A stretch of 31,122 nt of DNA, from positions 1 through 31,122 of the IMG/VR virus record IMGVR_UViG_3300037185_000058; one strand, 5' to 3'. Under the pieces are notes generated by a model. That model was not told the origin of the DNA, did no database searches, and saw nothing but the letters and a program-made list of their open reading frames with translations. A program made the position numbers and the translations under genes. Numbering within the stretch: the stretch's first letter is position 1; every line of letters starts with the position of its first letter. Shown piece after piece: positions 2,981-15,700 of this stretch. The stretch comes from a virus (Duplodnaviria > Caudoviricetes).

Positions 2981-5900
2981 CTACGGGTGCAGCAGTTTTC
3001 TCTGTTCTCTCTTCATGTGCTCGATGACGGAGTCGGATTTTGAGGCTCGAGCTTTCGACTCGTTCACCCTGCCGGTTTTGATCTGATCCCAGATGTCTCG
3101 GGCCGTTCCTGGGGGTTTCGAGGGCTTCACGTGCTGAGGCGGCGTGCCAGCGAACAGGGTTGTGAGAAGCTCTTTGTTCTGGTACTTGTCGGCGTCGGGA
3201 CCGGCGAGCATTTCCCATGCGTTAGCGAAGCTCCAGGGGAAAGGCACGAGAGACTTTCCCATCTCGATTACTCCGCGCGCGGTGGAGGCCAGCGGGTTCA
3301 TGCCCTTCGGTGCGATCTCGCGGCCGAGAAAGGTCTCGTTCTTCTGCGATTCATTCCAGGCGCGCAGTCCTGGGCCGGCGGACTGGCCGATGGTGCGCAG
3401 GGGGCCTTCGATGCCACCGTACTCGATGATGTTCCCCAGCGTGTTCGCCAGTTGCCCTGCCGCGCCGCGAAGGAAGATGTTCTGGTAGACGTCGTTCCCG
3501 TCCTTGTCAGTTCCCATGTAGACCTGGGTGGGACGCTTCGAAGGCTTCCCCGAGAACATGAGGCTGGCGAGCTGGGTGGCGATCATACCGCCCGTGAGCG
3601 TTCGCAGCCAGAACATCCGCGCCATCTTGCCAGCCGGCGTGCCGCCCTCAAACGTATATTTCGCGTTGAGGATGTTGCTCCACCACCAATCCGGAGCGAG
3701 TTGGAGTACCCGCGCGAAGTTTAAGGTCATTTTGTTGACGCCAAGGTTTTCCCAGTGCAGCCCTCCGTAAACCGCGTTGACTTCCTTCGCCATGCTCCGG
3801 AGCGCGGTATCGAGCTCGTCGCGGGTTGCCCCCGGATGCCTGGCAATCCAGCCAGCCTCGTGGATGGCCATGTCGGTGACCTTGAAACGCCGCTGCTGGT
3901 TCTCAAACGTGAACGAAGTAATAGCGTGCGCGGTCTGGTCCACCTGGCGGATAACCGGCAGCGACCTGAAGGCCTCGCTCGGTGTGGGAAGCGAACTCAC
4001 AGTGAGCGGCCCGGTCGCCGCTAGGCCTTCCTCCATCCCTGGCGCGCTCTTCTGAATCGCCGTGGTCAACCCGTGGCCAATGTACCAGGCCTCCTGCCGC
4101 TCGAATTCGCGGCTGAATCGATCCGCCTTGAGCGCCTTCCAGTATCCGGTCGGCCCCATGTTGCCGAGCGCCATAGCGGTTTCGGCTGTGGCGTGGAAGA
4201 ACGACATGGAGAGCTGCGCGGCCTTGGTGAAGATCTGATAATTTCGAGCCAGCCTGAACGCCGTCACACGATTCAGGTAATCGGGATCCGTTATCGGCTG
4301 AAACGCCTTCTCGACCTTCGGCGCGACGAAGAATCTCTCCGCTCCGTTCTGGAAGAGTTGGGCATGGGGAGCCATCTCGACCCAGCCCTTGGGGATGTTC
4401 TCTCCGCCTTTGACGCCCCAGCGCCCGGTGTCCGCTTCCCCCATGTGCTGGAGCAGCATGTGCGTGGCGCGCGCGGTCGCGAATTTATCGCCGTAGACCT
4501 CGAACGCCTTGAAGGGATCGAGGGTCCTCGGGCGCTGGTTGTTCGCGATGGCCTCCAGGATGGTAGGGAATTCGCGCTCCTGGTTGTAGGGGAAGTTGCG
4601 CCCGATCTTGCCACCGAGGGCGCGGCCCATCTTGTCGAAGGCGCCCTCTTTCTCTTCCGCCGGCTGCAACAAGTGAGTCACGTACTCGTCGGGCGAGACG
4701 TGCTCCTCGATGAACCCGAGCTTCTGGCCTTCCCGTAAAGAGACCTCTGCGATCGCTGTCAGTTCCTTGTCGGCCTTCAGCATGGCCGGCGTGGGATTGA
4801 GCGCCCGCTCGATCGACGGCTTGAGCTTGCGGATGTTTTCCTGGCCGATTGTGACGTCGGGAACGGTCATGTAGCCCATGTGCGTTCCGGCGAGCCATTG
4901 CTCCATCTGTCCTGGGGCGATGCGCGAGTCGCGCATTAGGTAGAGGCCTTCGCGGTCCACCGCTGAGGGAATCTCTCTCCGTAGCCTTCCCGTGATCTGA
5001 CGCACCCGCGCGCTCCACAAATCCCGCTGGCCGGTGTAGTGCCAGACCTCGTTTTTCCCGTAGCGCTTTTCGGCTTCGGCGTTTACCTGCTCGGGGGTCT
5101 TCTGGATTTGCTTCAGGCTGAAGGAGCCGCGCTCGGAGCCGAGTCGGGAGGCGTTGAAAAGCGCGCCCTGCTCCGGGCCGTCCTCATCGAAGAGGCTTCG
5201 GTTTTTGGCGGGTTTGAGTTTCGACGGGCCTTTTGCCAGACCGGAGTTTATCTGCGCCGTGAGTTGATCGTGCAGCAGCCGATTCTCGCCGTGCTGGTTG
5301 TCTACTTGGGATTGCCGCTCGGCTTCGGGGCCGAAGAGGGAACCTTCTGGGTTTTCGCCGGCGGCGTTCCCGGCGGGTAAAAGATCGCGTGGCTGGCGCT
5401 CATAATCGGCACCCGTCGCATTCCGGAAGGCGGATGTATCAGGTTTATTTCCCGCTCCAGTCCGGCCTCTCCCTCCTGGTCGTAGGCGTCCAGGCACCTC
5501 ACCAGGTTTTCCTCCACTTCCTTCAGGTCCTCTTCGGAGAGCGGAGATAACCCGCTTCGCGATTTCCCTTGGTTTGACACTGCCGTGCTCCCTCCTCAAC
5601 TCTCGCACATACCGCGCTCCGAGAGACCTGGCCTCCGAATGGGAGAGGTCAAGTTGCTGGTAGCGCTGTGGCTGCATTAGGCGCGCGCCCACTTCGGCGG
5701 CGGCTTCTCCGGCGGACTCGAACTGATACCTCGATAACGCTGCGGTGGCGCGATTGCCTTCCGCGCTTCCCGCGACGAATGAGGAGGCGTTTGCCTCCGA
5801 AAGATGCCTATTGGCGGAGCGACCGCCGGCAAGCCTCGACTGCGCCGCGTGATCCAATTCTTCCCGCAACGCAGCCGTCTTCGTCTCGTCCGTGGCACCC

Positions 5901-8900
5901 TCGTGGTCACCGACGACGATCAGAGATTTTCCGGAAACGGCCGCGCGGGTCGCGGCATCTATGAGGTTCAGAACGGATTGCGGCGGCGTCGTGTACTCGG
6001 CGGCAGAGGAACGCGCCAATGCGGCCACTTTCCCGGCGTCCCCTGGTGCCAGGTGCAGGGCTCCCGCACCGCTAAGCTGCCCCGCCAACCGGCTGATATA
6101 CTCGATGCCGCTCGGATTCGTTACGTAGGCTACCGCGTGCTTCGCATCCTCCGGGTCGAGGGGGTGCTCCTCGAACTGCATGTGCCGAGCGTGCCAGTCG
6201 GCGCTCAGGTTCGGGGAGTATATCGCGTTGCGCCCGGTTGAAAGGCGGGGGACGCGGGAAGCGTTGAAGGGCGCAGCGGGAGAGTGCTGCGCGGTGGGTT
6301 CACTCGTTTGCTCGGCCTTGCGAGTCCAGTGCCTTCGAGCGTTCAGCGGGTTGGCCCCTTCGACATGGTAGAGACTGCCATCGCGGAATTCGTAGAGGCC
6401 CTCCACTTTGGCGCGCCTCACCAGAATCTCTCCTGGCTCGATGTAGCGCCCTCCGCTGGAGTGCGTGTTTTCTTCCGGTACGACCTCGCCACTCAGTACA
6501 GCGAAACGACGGTGCGCTTCCCAGTAACCAACGTGCCAGTCACGCGCCTGCTCGAATGCGCGATCCAAGTCCCCGCGCGCATCGAATGCGCTCGTCCCGG
6601 GGAGGAGGCCTGTTGGCTTATAATTCGCCCAGGCCTCGGACGGGCCGATGATTTCGCCTACTTTGGGTGTTTCGCGGGGGTCAAGCGCCCGCACCGCGAT
6701 GACTTTCCCCTCGGGCGTTTGCGGCTGTTTCTCTAGGGGATTGTCGCCCGGGCCGCCCTGTTTGGGCACCGGATGCGATTGTAGCGCAGGTACGCGGGAA
6801 GCGTTGAAGGGCGCAGCGGGAGAGGCCTTCGGCAGGAGGTCGGGATATTCTGCCAGCACTTCGGGTGGAACGGGATTTCCCTCGCGGATAGCCTGGATCG
6901 CCACAGCGCGCATCTCCCTCATGAGTTCGATGCGCCGTTTCATAACCGTGGCGGGATTCCAGTATTTCCCAGTTGGCGGCGGCAAGCCTGGAATCTTGCC
7001 GTACCCCTCTGGCATGTTCTTCGTTGCAGCTGCGAGCTTCGCGTCCTCGGCCTGAATTTCGGCGATCGAGCGGGGCGCAGTAGGTGTGGTGGAGGGTTTG
7101 GACTGAGAGGGGGGGCTGCCTACCTGCTGCTCTGGCTCGGCTGCTCTTGCGGGGCCGCGCGCTTCGCCTGGGCCTCTCTGAGGTCCTTCTGGCGCATTCT
7201 CTCGCGGAGCCACGCCACGTTCGCCGGGTTCGCCGGGAGGTTGAACGGCCGCTTTGTCTCCGAAGAGGTCTTTCTGCGGTTCCCAGCGCTGCTTGGCTCG
7301 CTCATAGGCCGTCTCCAGAATATCAGCTTTCGACAGCGGAGCGGGAGGTCCGAACATCGAATCCTGCTTCGGGCTGCCGGCCTCATGCGCTACCTCGCTG
7401 TACTCCTTCAGAACCTCGCCGATTTTCTTTGCCGATTTCCGATTGTCGGCGAAAATCTGCACCAGCTTCTCCGCTACCGGGTCGCGCTCCTGGCCGGCGA
7501 GATCGCCTTGCGCCATCCAGTCTTTAACCGGCGTTCCCTCGCGGTGCAGATTGTCGAGGACTGCTGCCGCATCCGAGATCTCCTGGCCGAGTCCGACATC
7601 GAAGCGATCCCCACGCGAGACGGCTTCCTGGAACTGCGCCACCTTCGGCGCGGCTTGCAGCATTCCGGCGGTGATGTTCTTCAGCGACGGATTCTCGCTT
7701 TCAGCCATGCGCTCCAAGGCGCGCGGATCGGGGTAGGCCTTCGCAAAGACGGTGTTTCTGACGATACGGGCCCCGGTTTGCGAGAGCTTCCCGCTCGCAT
7801 CCATGAAGACGCCCTGCTCTTCTACCGGCAGGCCTTTGATGAGTTCCCGCACAAACTCGGGATTCGGCGTGCCGTCCTCCTTCGGCTCGAAGGAATCCAT
7901 GAGCGGCCCGGTCATGCGCCGGGAAAGAACCGCGGCCACTTCCGCATCGGACATGCGCGCGGCAGAACTCATGTTCGCTTCCTCTGCGAATTGGGCCACG
8001 TCCGCAGGCTTCATCGCATCGGTGATGACGCGGGTCAGCACGGGATTGGGAATCGCAGCCACCCGTTGCGGATCGTCGCCGTAGTCCGCCGCGTGGTCGA
8101 TGAGGTCCTGCTTGTAGGCAGCCGCCCTGGGGCTGCCCTCCGCGTAAAGTTCCTTCAGGGCTTGCGTTCCATGATTTCGGGTAATCGTGGTTCCGTCCGG
8201 CAAGGTGATCGGCGCGCCATCCGAGGCCAAGCGCGAATCCGCCATCAGGGCAAAATTCATATCGCCCTTACGCTGGTCCACGCGCGCGCGACTCGCCACC
8301 CGATCCGTGTTTCTCGGCTGATACTCCTGCGGGTAGCCCGGTCGGAAGGAGTTGGTGAGCTCCGAGGCATCGCGAATGTCGTACTGGACGCCCACCTTGC
8401 GCCCCGTGATGGTGTAGACCTCGGCGGCTTTGCCGCTGGCAGCTGTGGGAACGTCCGGGCCGGCGACCGGCTTCTGGCTTGGGGCAGGCAGAAACTCTTT
8501 CGGGATTTCGGGCTGCTGAGGCTCTGGAGGCTCAGGAGCCGCTTTCCAGCCCTTCCCCAGGTCTAACCCGCCCTCGGATGGCGATACAGTCTGTGGCTGT
8601 TGAGCCACAGGGGCGGGAAGGAACTCAGGGGGAACGTTGGGTTTCTCCTCAGCCAATGTCGCGGCCGCTGGCGGCTGATTCGCCGATGCTGCCGGCGGCT
8701 GGGGAGAGTTTGCCCTACGTTCCTGGATTGCTGCCGCCCTCTGCTCCGCTATGGCGTCTTCGATAGGATTGGAGGTCCAGCCCTCGCCAAGATCTGTAGG
8801 GGGTGGCGCTGGCGTGGGTTCGACGGGCTGGGCGGGGGATGGTGGCGGGGAAGGCGGTGGAGGGGCTGGGGCCGATTCTGGCGCAGGGGCGCCCGGTCTG

Positions 8901-10039
8901 AGGCCTTGAGCCGTGGCCATCCTGTCAGCCTCGTAGGCTCCCTGCCTGCGGATGCCCTCTTGGCCGAAGATTTCCATTTTCGGGCGGTCGCCGGCCTGGC
9001 GCGCCGCTTGGTAGCCGTACATCACCTGGTGGTCAGTCAGCGAGGTGGGGTCGATGCCCTGACCGAACATTCCGCCGGGGCCGAATAGGCCGGAGACTTT
9101 CGCCACCGCGCCGCCGACTCCCAGCCCGGCAAGGTTTCCGCCTAGTTCGGCGTAGTCGGGCTTGGCTCCTGCCGCTTCGAGGGCTCTCTTGGCCCCTTCG
9201 CTGGCCAGATCGTACCCTGCCAGCGTCGCCACCGTGCGGATCGGCGCCTGCATCGCGGCGTAGGGAATCAGCACGCTCCCGATCTCAAGGCCGCCCTTGA
9301 CGACTTTCCCGGTCCCGCCTACCAGTTGATTGAGACCTTCCGGGAGATAGGTCTCACCTTTGAGCCGATTCGCCTTGGACTGTCGGGCGGCCTCCTCCGG
9401 AGAGGCTGCTTTCGCCATGTCCCCGATTTCAGAGAGACCTTGCGCCACGTTATCGAGCGCCTGGAATCCGAGGTCGAAGGGACCGAGGCCGAACTTCTGC
9501 CGCGCCTCGTCGACGACCTTCTGCGCGGGCGCGGGAAGGATCGACGGCTTCGGCCTTGAGAAATCGACCGGCTGCGTTCCCCGCGGCCCGGTGTAGGTTT
9601 GCGTGCCGGGCGTGCGGGTATAGACCGAGAGCGGCGCGCCGGGGCCCGGCGGTTTCGGAGGATTCGGCTCCTCGGCGAGAATCTGCGGACCTGGTTGCGT
9701 CGGCGCTTTCGCCTTCCACGCGTCCAGTTGTCGGTTGTAGGCTTCGGCGGCTTGCCGCTGTTCGGCGGTATCCCAGAAGGGAGCTTCGTCCCCTTCGGCA
9801 TCCTCGGGGAGGGACTGTCCTGGTCGAAAGCGGGGATAGTCGAGGCCCTTGGGAAGTGAAGGCGCTCCGGAAGTATCGGCGCGTCCACCGGCGGTGGATC
9901 CGCCGACCGGCGCCAGCGCCGCGGCGGAGGGCTGCGGCGCCACTTTCCAGCCTTTCCCCAAATCGACAGACGAATCCTCGGGCACAGGCGGGGGAGTTGC
10001 CTGGCCTGGCGGCCCGATGATCCAGCCCTGGGAACCCAT
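2981..10039 (-). CDS. Large polyvalent / DNA-ejection (internal virion) protein, 2352 aa, with ddrB-like ParB domain, ART-like cassette, zincin-like domain and helical C-terminal region
   Basis: Last gene of the late operon, after two ejection-like genes. Motifs: YQPRNTDRVAS...SDGAPITLPDG...FAEEANMSSAARMSDAEVA (ddrB-like ParB, ~7310-8430), GNPVPPEVLAEYPDL and REELDH. The N-terminus is Pro/Ala-rich. Confidence 0.85.
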   Translation of the reverse strand: MGSQGWIIGPPGQATPPPVPEDSSVDLGKGWKVAPQPSAAALAPVGGSTAGGRADTSGAPSLPKGLDYPRFRPGQSLPEDAEGDEAPFWDTAEQRQAAEAYNRQLDAWKAKAPTQPGPQILAEEPNPPKPPGPGAPLSVYTRTPGTQTYTGPRGTQPVDFSRPKPSILPAPAQKVVDEARQKFGLGPFDLGFQALDNVAQGLSEIGDMAKAASPEEAARQSKANRLKGETYLPEGLNQLVGGTGKVVKGGLEIGSVLIPYAAMQAPIRTVATLAGYDLASEGAKRALEAAGAKPDYAELGGNLAGLGVGGAVAKVSGLFGPGGMFGQGIDPTSLTDHQVMYGYQAARQAGDRPKMEIFGQEGIRRQGAYEADRMATAQGLRPGAPAPESAPAPPPPSPPPSPAQPVEPTPAPPPTDLGEGWTSNPIEDAIAEQRAAAIQERRANSPQPPAASANQPPAAATLAEEKPNVPPEFLPAPVAQQPQTVSPSEGGLDLGKGWKAAPEPPEPQQPEIPKEFLPAPSQKPVAGPDVPTAASGKAAEVYTITGRKVGVQYDIRDASELTNSFRPGYPQEYQPRNTDRVASRARVDQRKGDMNFALMADSRLASDGAPITLPDGTTITRNHGTQALKELYAEGSPRAAAYKQDLIDHAADYGDDPQRVAAIPNPVLTRVITDAMKPADVAQFAEEANMSSAARMSDAEVAAVLSRRMTGPLMDSFEPKEDGTPNPEFVRELIKGLPVEEQGVFMDASGKLSQTGARIVRNTVFAKAYPDPRALERMAESENPSLKNITAGMLQAAPKVAQFQEAVSRGDRFDVGLGQEISDAAAVLDNLHREGTPVKDWMAQGDLAGQERDPVAEKLVQIFADNRKSAKKIGEVLKEYSEVAHEAGSPKQDSMFGPPAPLSKADILETAYERAKQRWEPQKDLFGDKAAVQPPGEPGERGVAPRENAPEGPQRGPGEARGPARAAEPEQQVGSPPSQSKPSTTPTAPRSIAEIQAEDAKLAAATKNMPEGYGKIPGLPPPTGKYWNPATVMKRRIELMREMRAVAIQAIREGNPVPPEVLAEYPDLLPKASPAAPFNASRVPALQSHPVPKQGGPGDNPLEKQPQTPEGKVIAVRALDPRETPKVGEIIGPSEAWANYKPTGLLPGTSAFDARGDLDRAFEQARDWHVGYWEAHRRFAVLSGEVVPEENTHSSGGRYIEPGEILVRRAKVEGLYEFRDGSLYHVEGANPLNARRHWTRKAEQTSEPTAQHSPAAPFNASRVPRLSTGRNAIYSPNLSADWHARHMQFEEHPLDPEDAKHAVAYVTNPSGIEYISRLAGQLSGAGALHLAPGDAGKVAALARSSAAEYTTPPQSVLNLIDAATRAAVSGKSLIVVGDHEGATDETKTAALREELDHAAQSRLAGGRSANRHLSEANASSFVAGSAEGNRATAALSRYQFESAGEAAAEVGARLMQPQRYQQLDLSHSEARSLGARYVRELRREHGSVKPREIAKRVISALRRGPEGSGGKPGEVPGRLRPGGRGRTGAGNKPDTSAFRNATGADYERQPRDLLPAGNAAGENPEGSLFGPEAERQSQVDNQHGENRLLHDQLTAQINSGLAKGPSKLKPAKNRSLFDEDGPEQGALFNASRLGSERGSFSLKQIQKTPEQVNAEAEKRYGKNEVWHYTGQRDLWSARVRQITGRLRREIPSAVDREGLYLMRDSRIAPGQMEQWLAGTHMGYMTVPDVTIGQENIRKLKPSIERALNPTPAMLKADKELTAIAEVSLREGQKLGFIEEHVSPDEYVTHLLQPAEEKEGAFDKMGRALGGKIGRNFPYNQEREFPTILEAIANNQRPRTLDPFKAFEVYGDKFATARATHMLLQHMGEADTGRWGVKGGENIPKGWVEMAPHAQLFQNGAERFFVAPKVEKAFQPITDPDYLNRVTAFRLARNYQIFTKAAQLSMSFFHATAETAMALGNMGPTGYWKALKADRFSREFERQEAWYIGHGLTTAIQKSAPGMEEGLAATGPLTVSSLPTPSEAFRSLPVIRQVDQTAHAITSFTFENQQRRFKVTDMAIHEAGWIARHPGATRDELDTALRSMAKEVNAVYGGLHWENLGVNKMTLNFARVLQLAPDWWWSNILNAKYTFEGGTPAGKMARMFWLRTLTGGMIATQLASLMFSGKPSKRPTQVYMGTDKDGNDVYQNIFLRGAAGQLANTLGNIIEYGGIEGPLRTIGQSAGPGLRAWNESQKNETFLGREIAPKGMNPLASTARGVIEMGKSLVPFPWSFANAWEMLAGPDADKYQNKELLTTLFAGTPPQHVKPSKPPGTARDIWDQIKTGRVNESKARASKSDSVIEHMKREQRKLLHP
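5302..5580 (-). CDS. Putative nested gene (92 aa) in +1 frame of the polyvalent gene
   Basis: SD GAGGAGGGAG ends 7 nt before the GTG. The product has an acidic amphipathic helix (EEDLKEVEENLVRCLDAYDQEGEAGLEREINL) while the host frame is R/G/P-rich linker. Confidence 0.55.
   Translation of the reverse strand: MSNQGKSRSGLSPLSEEDLKEVEENLVRCLDAYDQEGEAGLEREINLIHPPSGMRRVPIMSASHAIFYPPGTPPAKTQKVPSSAPKPSGNPK
6252..6824. repeat. Perfect 33-bp direct repeat (6252-6284 and 6792-6824), 540 bp apart, encoding SPAAPFNASRV
   Basis: acgcgggaagcgttgaagggcgcagcgggagag occurs twice. A degenerate third copy (cgggaggcgttgaaaagcgc, ALFNASR) is at ~5145-5164. Confidence 0.95.
7120..7305 (-). CDS. Putative nested gene (61 aa, MSEPSSAG...) in +1 frame of the polyvalent gene
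   Basis: GGAG lies 7 nt before ATG 7305. The product has a helical segment NPANVAWLRERMRQKDLREAQAKR. The host frame is P/G/E/R-rich linker right after the ddrB-like domain. Confidence 0.42.
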   Translation of the reverse strand: MSEPSSAGNRRKTSSETKRPFNLPANPANVAWLRERMRQKDLREAQAKRAAPQEQPSQSSR

Positions 10040-12011: not shown

Positions 12012-12227
12012 GTGCCGTCCTTGGCCCACTACAAAAGAGTGCTGCTCCAATCGGTCCAGGCCCAGGCGCGTCGCCAAGGATTAGAGGTCCCGGCAGGAGC
12101 TTTCCGCTTCGTCAGCTACGATTTCCACGGGGAGCCGGTGCTCGCCGTCAGATGCACTTCGCATCCGGATCTGCGCCTCGCGCTGTTCCACCGGGTATGG
12201 AACGCCCATCGGCGTGGCGAGTACTGA
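12012..12227 (+). CDS. Putative small antisense (moron-like) gene, 71 aa
   Basis: Fills the 11977-12148 gap with protein-like composition. TAAGCT at 12000-12005 is 6 nt before the GTG. It overlaps only the unstructured tail of the GNAT. Confidence 0.45.
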   Translation: MPSLAHYKRVLLQSVQAQARRQGLEVPAGAFRFVSYDFHGEPVLAVRCTSHPDLRLALFHRVWNAHRRGEY

Positions 12228-12723
12228 GGCCGGCCTCGAACCCTTCTTTGCTCAACCCGTAGAGCCACACGTCCCGCGGATGGCCGCCCGACATCGTGTG
12301 CCCGATGAGGGTTCCCTCGCGTCTGGCGCCGAGCGCGCACACGAGCGAGCTCGTGGCGCAGTACGGCGCCGCAAGGACCTGGAACTCCAGCTTCCCTAAC
12401 CCAGGCTCCGCAAACATCTCTGCGACCGCCAGCCGCGACGCCTTCAGCGTGAAACCGTGCCCCTGGAAGTCCGGCTTCAATAGATAACGAACGCTGCCCA
12501 ACCACGGCGACATGCGCTCGAACGTCACCAGGCCGCCCAGTTCGCCCCCGCCGTGCACCGCCCACGTCCTCAGCCGCCCCCATTGCGCCTGCATGCAGTC
12601 CAGAAAGGCCGTCAAATCCCGCGGGCTGAAATCGTCCGAGACTTTTTCGCGGAAAGGCTCGATCCACCGCCACACCCGCGGCAACGCTTCGAAGGGGAAC
12701 GGGGTGACAACTCGAATCTGCAC
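12148..12723 (-). CDS. GNAT/RimJ-like acetyltransferase-fold virion assembly protein
   Basis: Motifs LLKPDFQGHGF and LGARREGTLIGH...GHPRDVWLYGL (RimJ/RimL-like). Probable GTG start at 12723 with GAGG SD. Typical position before ejection genes in podoviruses. Confidence 0.82.
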   Translation of the reverse strand: MQIRVVTPFPFEALPRVWRWIEPFREKVSDDFSPRDLTAFLDCMQAQWGRLRTWAVHGGGELGGLVTFERMSPWLGSVRYLLKPDFQGHGFTLKASRLAVAEMFAEPGLGKLEFQVLAAPYCATSSLVCALGARREGTLIGHTMSGGHPRDVWLYGLSKEGFEAGLSTRHADGRSIPGGTARGADPDAKCI

Positions 12724-12730
12724 CTGAACC

Positions 12731-15700
12731 TCAGAACGTCGCAAAACTGAATCCCCCCGAAATGTAGAGGCATCCCGCTGCGTTGAACACCGCGATGCTC
12801 CCGTTTGGAAGCACCTGGAATTGCGCTGCCACGCCCGCGGCTCCGGTCGAACCGGCCATCGGGAAGATCACGATTGCAGCCGGTCTGTAGCCCACTGGAA
12901 GCACTCCTACGACCGTGGTGTTCGCTGGCCCTGCCGACCCGCTCCTGGCATACCGCACGAAGACCTCACCCCGGCTGTTTTTTCGGTAGCTGGATGGCGC
13001 ATCACCGCTGCCTAGATCCGTTCCCCAGGTGTCGCCAGCTATGGGCGTCCAAGGGCTGTATCCCGTGCCGGGAGCGCTCGATTCCACGATGTTTCCGACT
13101 CCGGCGTCCGAGATGGAGCCATACTGCGCGTTGGTAACCAGGTTGTAGGCGTCCGTGGCGTTGAACACGATATCCGCGCCTCCGTTGCCGAATGCCTGCA
13201 CGTTGTTCATCGTGTTGTACACGTTCTGCGATCCCTGGAAATGGACTCCGTTTGATGTGCAAGCGGTTGAAATCACGTTGTCAAACTGGTTGCGGTAGCA
13301 TCCCAGTTGAATCGAGAGTCCGGTCTCGCCGTTCGCCGCGTCCGAACCGTCCACGTTTACGAAGTTGCTCCAACAGACGCCCATCAGCTTGATGGACCGC
13401 CCCGCCGAGCCACCGGAGATCAGGTTCGTCACCTGATGCCCGAGGCCCTCTATCCACAGCATTCCGAAGTTGCTATTCGTAATGTTGATGTCAGAGTAAA
13501 TACAGAACGACTCATGGTACGAGATGAACGAAGCCGCCGCGCCGTTTCCGCACCCGTCAAACGTCAAGCCGCTGAACCGTGTCCGGTAGCACAAATTCGA
13601 ATAGATGCCCGTGCTCCCGTAAATCCCGGAAGTGGGTCCGAAGTTCTTAAAGTTCAAATTTTCCAGCCGCGAGTTCGCCAACCCGGTCGCATATATCCCG
13701 TTGTAGCCAATCGTCCCGGTTGCGCTGATCCCGTCGAACGTCAGGCCGGAAATGCAAACGTTCTGCGCCAATGTGGCTGGCGCCACACCGTACCCAGCCG
13801 CCGCCAGTGGTATTCTGATCGCCTCATAGGGCGTGATCGTCGTGCCCACAATGCTCTTGATCTTCACAATTTGGTACAACTCGTAAGTTTGCGTGCCGCC
13901 GTAATAGGCCTGCGCAGAGGAGTACCCCAGCATCCCGTACCCGCCCACTGAAAACCCGGAGGCGGAGGCTACTTGGAAGGAAGGCGTTATGGTCGAATGC
14001 CGCGTGGCGAACGTGCCGTAGTCCGAAGAGAAATTGGTCGGCGCTCCCTGCCCGTAGCCCAGCACGCTCAGGCAGGATACAGGCCCTGACCCGGGCCCCG
14101 AGGCGGAATAATTCAGCGAGATCGTCGGATTCCCGATACCAACCAGCGAAAAGTTTGAAACCCCGCCGATCGTGATTGTCGCGTAAACCGTGGTGTTCTG
14201 AGTCACCGCGACACAGAATGGAACGCCCGCCGTCTTGCCGTGTTGCAACGCCTCGTGGATGCCTCCGCTGGAACTGCTGATCGTCCAGGCACCGGTGTGC
14301 GTATGGGCGCAACTGAAGCTCAACGTGGCCCCCGCTGCGGCGCCTTCGACCGCGTTGCCCCCGGTGATGCACACCGCCTCCGGTGTGCCGCCGCCGCCGC
14401 TGATCAAAAAGTAATGCGCCACGTCCGATCCGTTCAGGCCTAGCGGAACCGACCCCGGCAGCGTGATAGTGTTCAGTCCCACGCCGAGGTTCCCGCTTGT
14501 CGGCGTCTGCGAGAACTGATAATCGGTCGCCCGCATCATCAGCGAACTGGCCGCCGCGCTCGGCGTCCAGGCCGACCCGTTCCACGCGAGCGCCTGGTTG
14601 ATGGCTGGCGCGGTGGACGAGATGTTGTACCCTTGCAATTGGCTGGCGTTAGCACTGGCCCCGCCCGCTGCCGTGGGCTGCCAGCAGTTATTGGCCGCGC
14701 TCCACGCGAGAACCTGCGTATCGACCGGCGCTGTGGCCGCCACGGCGTAGCCTTGCAGGGCCGTGATTGTCGGCGAGAGCCACGATCCGTTTTCGCACAG
14801 GAACCGCGCGCTTCCAGCCATCGCGCCAGGATCGGGCACGATTCCGGGCGAATGGCCCGGGCCGCTGGCCGCCATCCTCGGCAGATCTCCCGTGCCAATC
14901 GGGTTTCCCGGCATGTAGACGTCCGAGGTGGCCGCGACCCGCGTTACATTCAAGGCCGTACGGAGGACGAGGCCGTTGTTGCCTGGGTCCGCGAGCCCCC
15001 CGCCGCCGACGCTTCCCGCCGGCACAGCCCAGGTCGAATTTTCGCAGAGGAACCTCAGGGAGCCGGCAGCCGGCCCCGGGTCTGGGACCGCGCCCTCCGC
15101 GTGCGTCGCGCCCGAGGCCATGAACACCGGAAGATCCGCGGCAAGCAAGGCGTACCCGGGCGCGTAGTAATCGCCCGCGTTCCCCGGCGTGGCAACCGTC
15201 GTGGTGTTAAGGGACGTGCGCTTCAGTAGCCCGTTGGCCCCTGAGTCCTGTAGGCCTGCTGCCACCCATCCCGATCCGGAGTTGACCCAGAGTTTGAAAC
15301 TCGCGTCCACTGCGAGTTTCCCGGCCGCGTTCGCCGGCAGAGTCCCCGGCGTCAGCGTGATCGAGGCGCAGGCCAGCAGGTTATGAGCCGCCGCGTTGAT
15401 ATCCTGTCCCCAAGGGGTCTGAGCGAGAGCGGAGATCGCCGACCACGCGCCCGAGAAGTAGATCTGCGGAACTCCGTACCCGTCGATGGCCATCATTCCG
15501 GACGCGAGCGTCCCGCCCACCGTTACCGTGCCACCGCTCGACCATCCGGCCAGGCTCGCCGCCACCGCGTAACTGATGGTGGTCGCTCCCGCGGATGTGA
15601 CCTGGACCTTGACGACGTTGTAGCCGGAGGGTGTTGCCCCGGCAACCGTAACGAGCTGGCCGGCCACCATCTTGTGAGGCCCGACCGTCACAGTGGCGAT

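Follow-up and report, generated by a model that had tools for sequence, protein, structure and literature searches.

Two small open reading frames (ORFs), A and B, were analysed within a giant polyvalent-type gene of a Caudoviricetes virus (IMG/VR record IMGVR_UViG_3300037185_000058). The whole stretch of 31,122 nucleotides is hereafter called the window, and the giant gene the host gene. Both ORFs lie on the strand of the host gene and in its +1 frame. B is almost certainly a real gene, and A very probably one. At the B site, selection at the protein level acts on the nested frame and the host linker is relaxed. A further new observation concerns copies of B that lie outside giant genes in a genome sample centred on Bryobacteraceae. 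The features concerned are the following:

2981-10039, minus strand: giant polyvalent-type gene, 2352 aa, closing the virion-gene cluster
8024-8404, minus strand: ddrB-like ParB domain, aa 546-672 (PF18763, E 7e-21)
7295-8449, minus strand: conserved ParB unit, i.e. the ParB domain and its C-terminal extension, about aa 531-915
7313-7316, minus strand: Shine-Dalgarno (SD) motif GGAG of ORF A, 7 nt before the ATG
7120-7305, minus strand: nested ORF A, ATG start, 61 aa, +1 frame, host aa 912-974
5531-6259, minus strand: zincin-like domain, aa ~1261-1503, in which EELDH replaces HExxH
5588-5596, minus strand: SD motifs of ORF B, GGAG at 7 nt and AGGAGG at 10 nt
5302-5580, minus strand: nested ORF B, GTG start, 92 aa, +1 frame, host aa 1487-1580, member of a large unnamed family

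A first-pass annotation had reported these two same-strand +1 ORFs with a GGAG 7 nt from each start, and this was confirmed. Its description of the main frame as R/G/P-rich linker also agrees with the host composition, which is P/E/A/G/R-rich over A and G/P/R-rich over B. The claim that each ORF begins where a domain ends held in part: A starts (host aa 912) at the end of the larger ParB unit (~aa 915), not directly after the Pfam ddrB-ParB domain, and the start codon of B lies some 17 codons within the final predicted helix of the zincin-like domain. The expected excess over codon-shuffled controls failed within the single gene, which is the outcome that the annotation itself had named as refuting. 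In 1000 synonymous codon shuffles, SD-led +1 ORFs of at least 60 aa numbered 1.56 on average against 2 observed, and two or more occurred in 492 of the 1000; taken alone this is not significant and speaks against two real genes. The result being at chance level, relatives alone can decide.

Loci carrying the B site were collected with a domain profile, which fetched eight other viral contigs, and with DNA-pattern and genome searches, which added others; a later scan of viral contigs for the zincin-like domain gave zero new loci. An SD motif, a start codon and at least 30 open codons in the +1 frame are present at the B site in 14 of 14 giant-gene copies; of these, L006 and L008 are closely related to each other, and L108 was retrieved with the nested product. 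The corresponding figures are 0 of 14 in the +2 frame and 3 of 42 for windows inside the domain. For the A site, ParB-unit loci were gathered by scanning metagenomes and genomes. With three truncated loci dropped, 89 were usable, forming 47 clusters at 80% identity, and lineages were counted without the window. An SD-led +1 ORF stands at the A site in 23 of the 29 lineages whose host continues for at least 600 aa, in 24 of 35 with at least 140 aa of further host, and in 5 of 11 with a shorter continuation. Background windows have such an ORF in 20 of 145 cases within the ParB unit (14%) and in 181 of 1278 host-wide, and an SD-led ORF in the +2 frame was found at the A site in none of the lineages. 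Conservation of SD and start in homologues, a check proposed in the first-pass annotation, was thus obtained at both sites.

These start sites bear on a different explanation, in which a programmed +1 frameshift would give each domain an alternative short C-terminus on a truncated giant protein. SD-like motifs can stimulate frameshifting, as in prfB, and both A and B start at domain ends, as such a mechanism would require. It is nevertheless very unlikely: an ATG or GTG is found at the right spacing in all 14 B-site loci and at the same codon in the closest relatives of A, B with its own start persists where the upstream host frame is broken, and no common slippery site is evident in the upstream DNA.

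Selection on the B frame was estimated from seven giant-gene copies over a core of 30 codons. The ratio of nonsynonymous to synonymous differences (pN/pS) was taken from raw proportions on an ungapped anchor, with no multiple-hit correction and with L009, which lacks the anchor, excluded. In this core, identity is 54% for the nested product and 35% for the host, and pN/pS is 0.56 nested versus 1.54 host. The 30 domain codons just upstream give the reverse, 0.44 for the host versus 1.13 in the +1 frame, and there every copy has 1-3 stops in +1. In parallel, the most variable codon position passes from host position 3 in the domain (0.65) to nested position 3 in B. One substitution seen in two other runs of the same phage is silent in B and alters a host residue; this is a single case. 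Acidic residues make up 19% of the B core versus 3% of the +1 frame overall. On the other side, the +1 products at the B site of L006/L008 and L011 look unrelated.

The possibility that A and B are shadow ORFs of a GC-rich, Gly/Pro/Arg-rich linker can be weighed on these data. Two such ORFs per gene are ordinary in the shuffles, and the stretch of A remains open in 85% of them. Against this stand the frequencies at the A and B sites, which exceed background, the acidic enrichment and nested-frame pN/pS of the B core, and a B family of 139 clusters. We give this explanation practically no credence in general, and for B it is refuted by the comparative data.

The size of the B family was obtained with a six-row profile, which among 1.84 billion representatives retrieved 139 clusters at 50% identity (median 87 aa, 130 of them of at most 135 aa); exchanges within the family are conservative hydrophobic ones. 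A profile made of the 99 rows less than 50% identical to the window's B scores B at E 3e-25 and the next segment of the window at E 2, these rows coming from a profile that contained B and so not being fully independent. Searches with the nested product alone gave 12 new loci; at nine of them the expected frame upstream encodes the zincin-like domain or its tail. The AlphaFold2 model of B is a two-helix hairpin (residues 16-48), with a predicted local distance difference test score (pLDDT) above 90 over residues ~21-50. Nested ORFs could also matter through translation only, for instance through ribosome traffic, coupling, or pauses for folding between domains, with the peptides themselves being irrelevant; the location of the sites at domain boundaries and the strong divergence of the A family would suit such a role. 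Residue-level conservation over 139 clusters and purifying selection in the own frame of B make it a marginal possibility at most.

A is likely a divergent member of a family of single-helix proteins of 40-60 aa that follow the ParB unit. Members have in common a short aromatic-x-x-x-R/N-P-x-V-V-x-x-L helix, and their mutual similarity reaches a mean z of 2.0 in +1, versus 0.81 in the host frame and 0.54 in +2. The four closest DNA relatives (47-53%) have an ATG at the same host codon as the window's A, and A is likely real because of this conservation of position and start. With the family profile, the window's A outscores 1998 of 2000 shuffles. Several results weigh against A. It fits its family poorly (its mean z to relatives is 0.67 in +1 and 0.55 in the host frame), and its profile match (E 0.0037) is equalled by a compositional control profile of the host frame (E 0.0023), so that the shuffle test is the sole profile support left. 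Its homology is altogether weaker than that of B. There is no nested ORF in 6 of the 29 long-host lineages, nor in several ParB subfamilies. The test of +1-frame selection suggested in the first-pass annotation succeeded for B and was uninformative for A, whose pN/pS is saturated. An upstream in-frame ATG at 7386 (88 aa) was considered as the start of A and rejected: relatives begin at the codon matching 7305, and ATG 7386 is altered in one related contig. Contigs of four low-share runs have no listed difference within ORF A.

Nested products are tied to the domain that precedes them. Over hosts totalling ~104,000 aa, SD-led ORFs number 92 in +1 versus 9 in +2. In five clusters of nested products, all 16 within-cluster pairs have a homologous upstream host segment, and no family crossed domains. 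The proposal that the linkers are dual-coding is supported. The accompanying proposal of domain-plus-partner pairs agrees with the tie of one nested family each to the ParB unit and the zincin-like domain; the rule is not universal, nested ORFs being absent after several ParB subfamilies and after the middle module of the giant protein, which is delimited as follows:

6789-6831, strand not applicable: 43-bp direct repeat, copy 2, 91% identical
6292-6788, minus strand: module of unassigned family between the repeats, aa ~1085-1250, with no SD-led nested ORF after it
6249-6291, strand not applicable: 43-bp direct repeat, copy 1

The repeats bracket an in-frame module of 540 bp. In a relative, P0002 (81% identical), both flanks are common with the window and the middle domain and linker are different; modules are therefore swapped. 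The middle module (host aa ~1100-1245) looks globular and has no match in Pfam, PHROGs or NCBIfam, and nothing usable came from the Atlas; its R / G-x-S-x-F / E-P-G-E pattern presumably recalls ADP-ribosyltransferase folds. One contig of another run joins across the repeat and omits exactly 540 bases; either a natural deletion or a join made by the assembler at the repeat could account for this. Two relatives, P0002 (aa ~1085-1260) and P0004 (aa ~895-1055), have in the middle a different HExxH domain (HEHLH/HEHVH) followed by another R/G-rich linker, a further candidate place for a nested gene. A third SD-led +1 nested family, one of the five clusters above, is found at L004:3977-4195 and L005:5828-5995, where the upstream domain is by inspection a ParB-like unit of a different subfamily.

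How the overlaps arose was also considered. The first-pass annotation spoke of overprinting of linkers. The frames do overlap; as it is the host frame that is relaxed there, the giant gene may instead have come to read through existing small genes, an origin that fits no worse than the overprinting of a linker by a new gene. At L126:5344-6132, the zincin-like domain occurs as a stand-alone gene of 263 aa amid housekeeping genes and ends inside a diverged B. Such a gene fits an origin by read-through but could equally be derived.

The zincin-like domain itself is at best a zincin variant on the predicted model, and should not be filed as a metallopeptidase (MPTase). A conserved Glu on the next helix, as in zincins, is present (E1449, on predicted helix 193-204), and E1394, H1397, Q1400 and E1449 are invariant in 21 of 21 aligned rows. 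The model has a pLDDT of 88.9, and the top three rows returned by VIA are zincin peptidases (Z 5.4, 5.0 and 4.9; root-mean-square deviation 4.6-4.7; 139-158 aligned). Three points limit the assignment: neither HExxH nor HExxxH is found, the first His of HExxH being replaced by Glu in EELDH (aa 1393-1397); the VIA scores are below the tool's own trust threshold; and Foldseek with the domain model gave nothing at E 0.001. With no HExxH and a weak fold match, any toxicity or activity of the domain is putative. The Atlas matches it to unnamed viral clusters only (0.93 and 0.92), and neither the domain nor the nested products received a name from Pfam, PHROGs, NCBIfam or PADLOC. A match of G381 to the zincin profile was discarded, the protein being by inspection an unrelated enzyme.

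To this phage picture the bacterial chromosomes add a second line of evidence. Two samples were searched, one of 401 genomes from the family of a Bryobacteraceae metagenome-assembled genome (MAG) and a class-wide one, also of 401. The B profile gave 11 matches in 10 genomes of the family sample, and 2 of 401 genomes in the class-wide sample, both shared with the former. They are distributed as follows: one match lies in an intact giant gene of 2279 aa, one in a giant-gene fragment, and around nine the stretch read contains no giant gene, the host frame staying open for 13-547 codons only. The neighbours of these nine orphans are different in each genome: ccm genes, msrA, a ChlI/ComM-type ATPase with an insertion sequence, homoserine dehydrogenase, rhaA and an integrase. 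In most orphans, all that is left of the domain is its tail, and the EELDH motif is often gone. At one of them (L125), B begins 3 nt past a housekeeping stop and its motif is kept although two stops interrupt the host frame within the 30-codon core. The domain profile gave 18 matches in the genomes, 10 of which are tail stubs. By contrast, ParB-unit matches used as a control lie in frames of at least 437 aa in 17 of 17 cases, as whole domains and with no stubs; with the 121-position PF18763 model (376 genomes), 15 of 15 matches over the cut-off are in frames of at least 437 aa. The contrast in stubs, 9 of 11 for B and 0 of 15 for ParB, gives a Fisher p of 2e-5, for a comparison chosen post hoc after loose initial searches. 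In a tree, orphans are interleaved with phage copies, five changes are needed, and a single origin appears in 0% of 200 bootstrap trees.

As judged from sequence, B without a giant gene and ParB never as a stub is the pattern of orphan immunity genes, in which the homologue of a gene usually found downstream of an effector is present without an intact effector, as for nine of the 11 matches here. These copies lend indirect support to an immunity-like role of the nested product, in line with the first-pass annotation. That the chromosomal copies protect the cell is a possibility we hold at somewhat less than even, and a number of results tell against it. Six of the nine orphans look intact, and one of these, near a contig end, may be a prophage remnant; two of the nine have diverged cores and one has no nearby SD-led start. 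Four domain stubs have no clear B. Orphans were found with the B profile, which biases their selection statistics. The tree is weakly resolved, only two branches being strongly supported and forcing only two changes. PADLOC matched 0 of 21 proteins, 17 of them neighbours of orphans. Two observations may be recorded beside these. A DMP19-like gene (PF14300) lies at L125:1963-2421, ~4 kb from an orphan B. The near-complete chromosome G739:C1 has three stubs of the zincin-like domain, near 975,400, 1,147,500 and 2,461,300 (L147, L146 and L123), with a recognisable B at one.

We incline, by a small measure, to a model in which the nested products are independently translated cognate partners that restrain the domain upstream; that they bind this domain is in itself reasonably probable. 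Ribosomes would translate A and B separately on the late mRNA, and each small helical product would bind and restrain the domain whose code precedes it. In the late phase, the ParB unit (a predicted nuclease/NTPase) and the zincin-like domain (a possible peptidase) would thus be kept quiet or folded by their partners until packaging. Injection of the giant protein would leave the partner behind, and the domain could then act in the next cell. Domain and nested gene would travel between giant genes as one cassette, and bacteria that retain a short piece of phage DNA with B would hold the antidote in advance, as with orphan immunity genes. A more speculative extension, to which we lend limited confidence, is that polyvalent proteins are chains of effector-antidote cassettes with the antidotes in the +1 frame of the next linker, and that Acidobacteria repeatedly stole the antidote of the zincin-like domain as a single-gene defence.

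The main competitor of the cognate-partner model accepts the nested ORFs as real and takes their products for helpers of assembly, processing or ejection, or for independent late proteins, without inhibitory action, the chromosomal copies being harmless phage debris. With its EELDH motif the zincin-like domain may be inactive, part of the orphans are degenerate, and Iyer et al. propose, in the main text of their article, that the polyprotein itself is often the substrate of such peptidase domains (PMC5512222). On the other side, every nested family is tied to one domain, debris should give ParB stubs too and none were found, and the B motif of L125 survives the stops of its host frame. We regard this alternative as rather unlikely, if worth keeping in view.

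The cognate-partner model has parallels in three described systems. Iyer et al. 2017 (PMC5512222) described phage polyvalent proteins with DdrB-like ParB and zincin-like MPTase domains, and also proposed host capture of polyvalent proteins for defence. A giant protein of several domains, ddrB-ParB and a zincin-like one among them, is encoded next to virion genes here as well; the motif EELDH is different, and the captured piece is a nested small gene and not an effector domain. The main text of that article (supplement aside) mentions no nested genes, 'nested' being used there only of a hairpin and the terms 'overlap', 'linker', 'frameshift' and 'small protein' being absent from it, and no description of nested genes in polyvalent proteins was found in the open-licence literature, supplements aside. 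Embedded two-component spanins such as lambda Rz/Rz1 (Kongari et al. 2018, PMC6139136) are encoded by +1 genes whose product complexes with that of the host gene. Like them, A and B are small genes fully contained in a phage gene and read in a shifted frame; they have their own initiation sites and are conserved in relatives. Spanins serve envelope lysis and have a single embedded lipoprotein gene, whereas here several putatively soluble small products are encoded one per domain in the linkers of one giant protein. The products of A and B are hydrophilic, have by inspection no signal-like N-terminus, and show neither the lipoprotein nor the transmembrane character of spanins; nor is their host part of a lysis cassette, being the giant gene of the virion cluster. 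Finally, orphan immunity genes of the type VI secretion system (Kirchberger et al. 2017, PMC5361080) are partners kept without an intact effector and apparently acquired several times. Here too a small downstream partner stands alone, and it may have been acquired more than once. The immunity genes are separate genes in arrays at secretion loci, guarding against bacteria, whereas B is nested in a phage gene, its copies are scattered among housekeeping genes, and their protection is putative.

Injected proteins of giant size are common among phages, and the linkers in them are regarded as unstructured filler. Should partners specific to each domain be encoded there, annotations lack a layer of phage genes. 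Standard gene callers, as the first-pass annotation had anticipated, missed A and B here, since both products are absent from the protein collection. Every enigmatic domain would then come with a candidate inhibitor, and the late production of active conflict domains without harm to the phage's own cycle would be explained. The chromosomal copies of B offer a direct test of a rarely considered route of defence, the keeping of the phage's own antidote. Should the cassette reading be true, +1 scans of giant phage genes would list unknown inhibitors and unknown anti-phage genes.

Concerning the phage itself, a capsid gene (PF25209), an adaptor gene (PF24175) and genes matching tail-like PHROGs lie upstream on the same minus strand as the giant gene, which thus stands beside virion structural genes as expected of a late gene. 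It matches phrog_5143 (E 6e-61) and combines, as polyvalent proteins do, two unrelated conflict domains, PF18763 and a separately shuffled, well-folded second domain whose identity is weakly supported. From what is known of the polyvalent family (main text of PMC5512222), we infer that the giant protein is packaged and injected. Among the seven runs holding at least half of the window's words, six are labelled peat metagenome and the seventh is without a label; no RNA dataset is among the runs listed as sharing them. Since the genome-borne sequences closest to the ParB unit (46-53%) come from Acidobacteriota and Terriglobia MAGs, the bacterial host is likely acidobacterial. No assembly artefact is seen: contigs of one run from a different study span the entire stretch and differ from it by a single substitution, with no indel. 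Neither a sigma-70-like promoter nor a terminator was found on the coding strand of 5200-7900, and scans of viral contigs with the window's own stretch or a close ParB alignment recovered only the window's contig.

Three minor features complete the description. A GNAT-family match lies amid the virion genes at 12148-12744 (PF13302, E 3e-8; phrog_651, head morphogenesis). A short D-L-G-x-G-W motif occurs three times in the Pro-rich N-terminal arm of the giant protein (8545-8564, 8776-8795 and 9946-9965). QxxLF/QxxMF motifs, which presumably resemble the sliding-clamp-binding motif, repeat on both sides of both nested genes (host aa 892, 922, 1565 and 1624) and recur in relatives.

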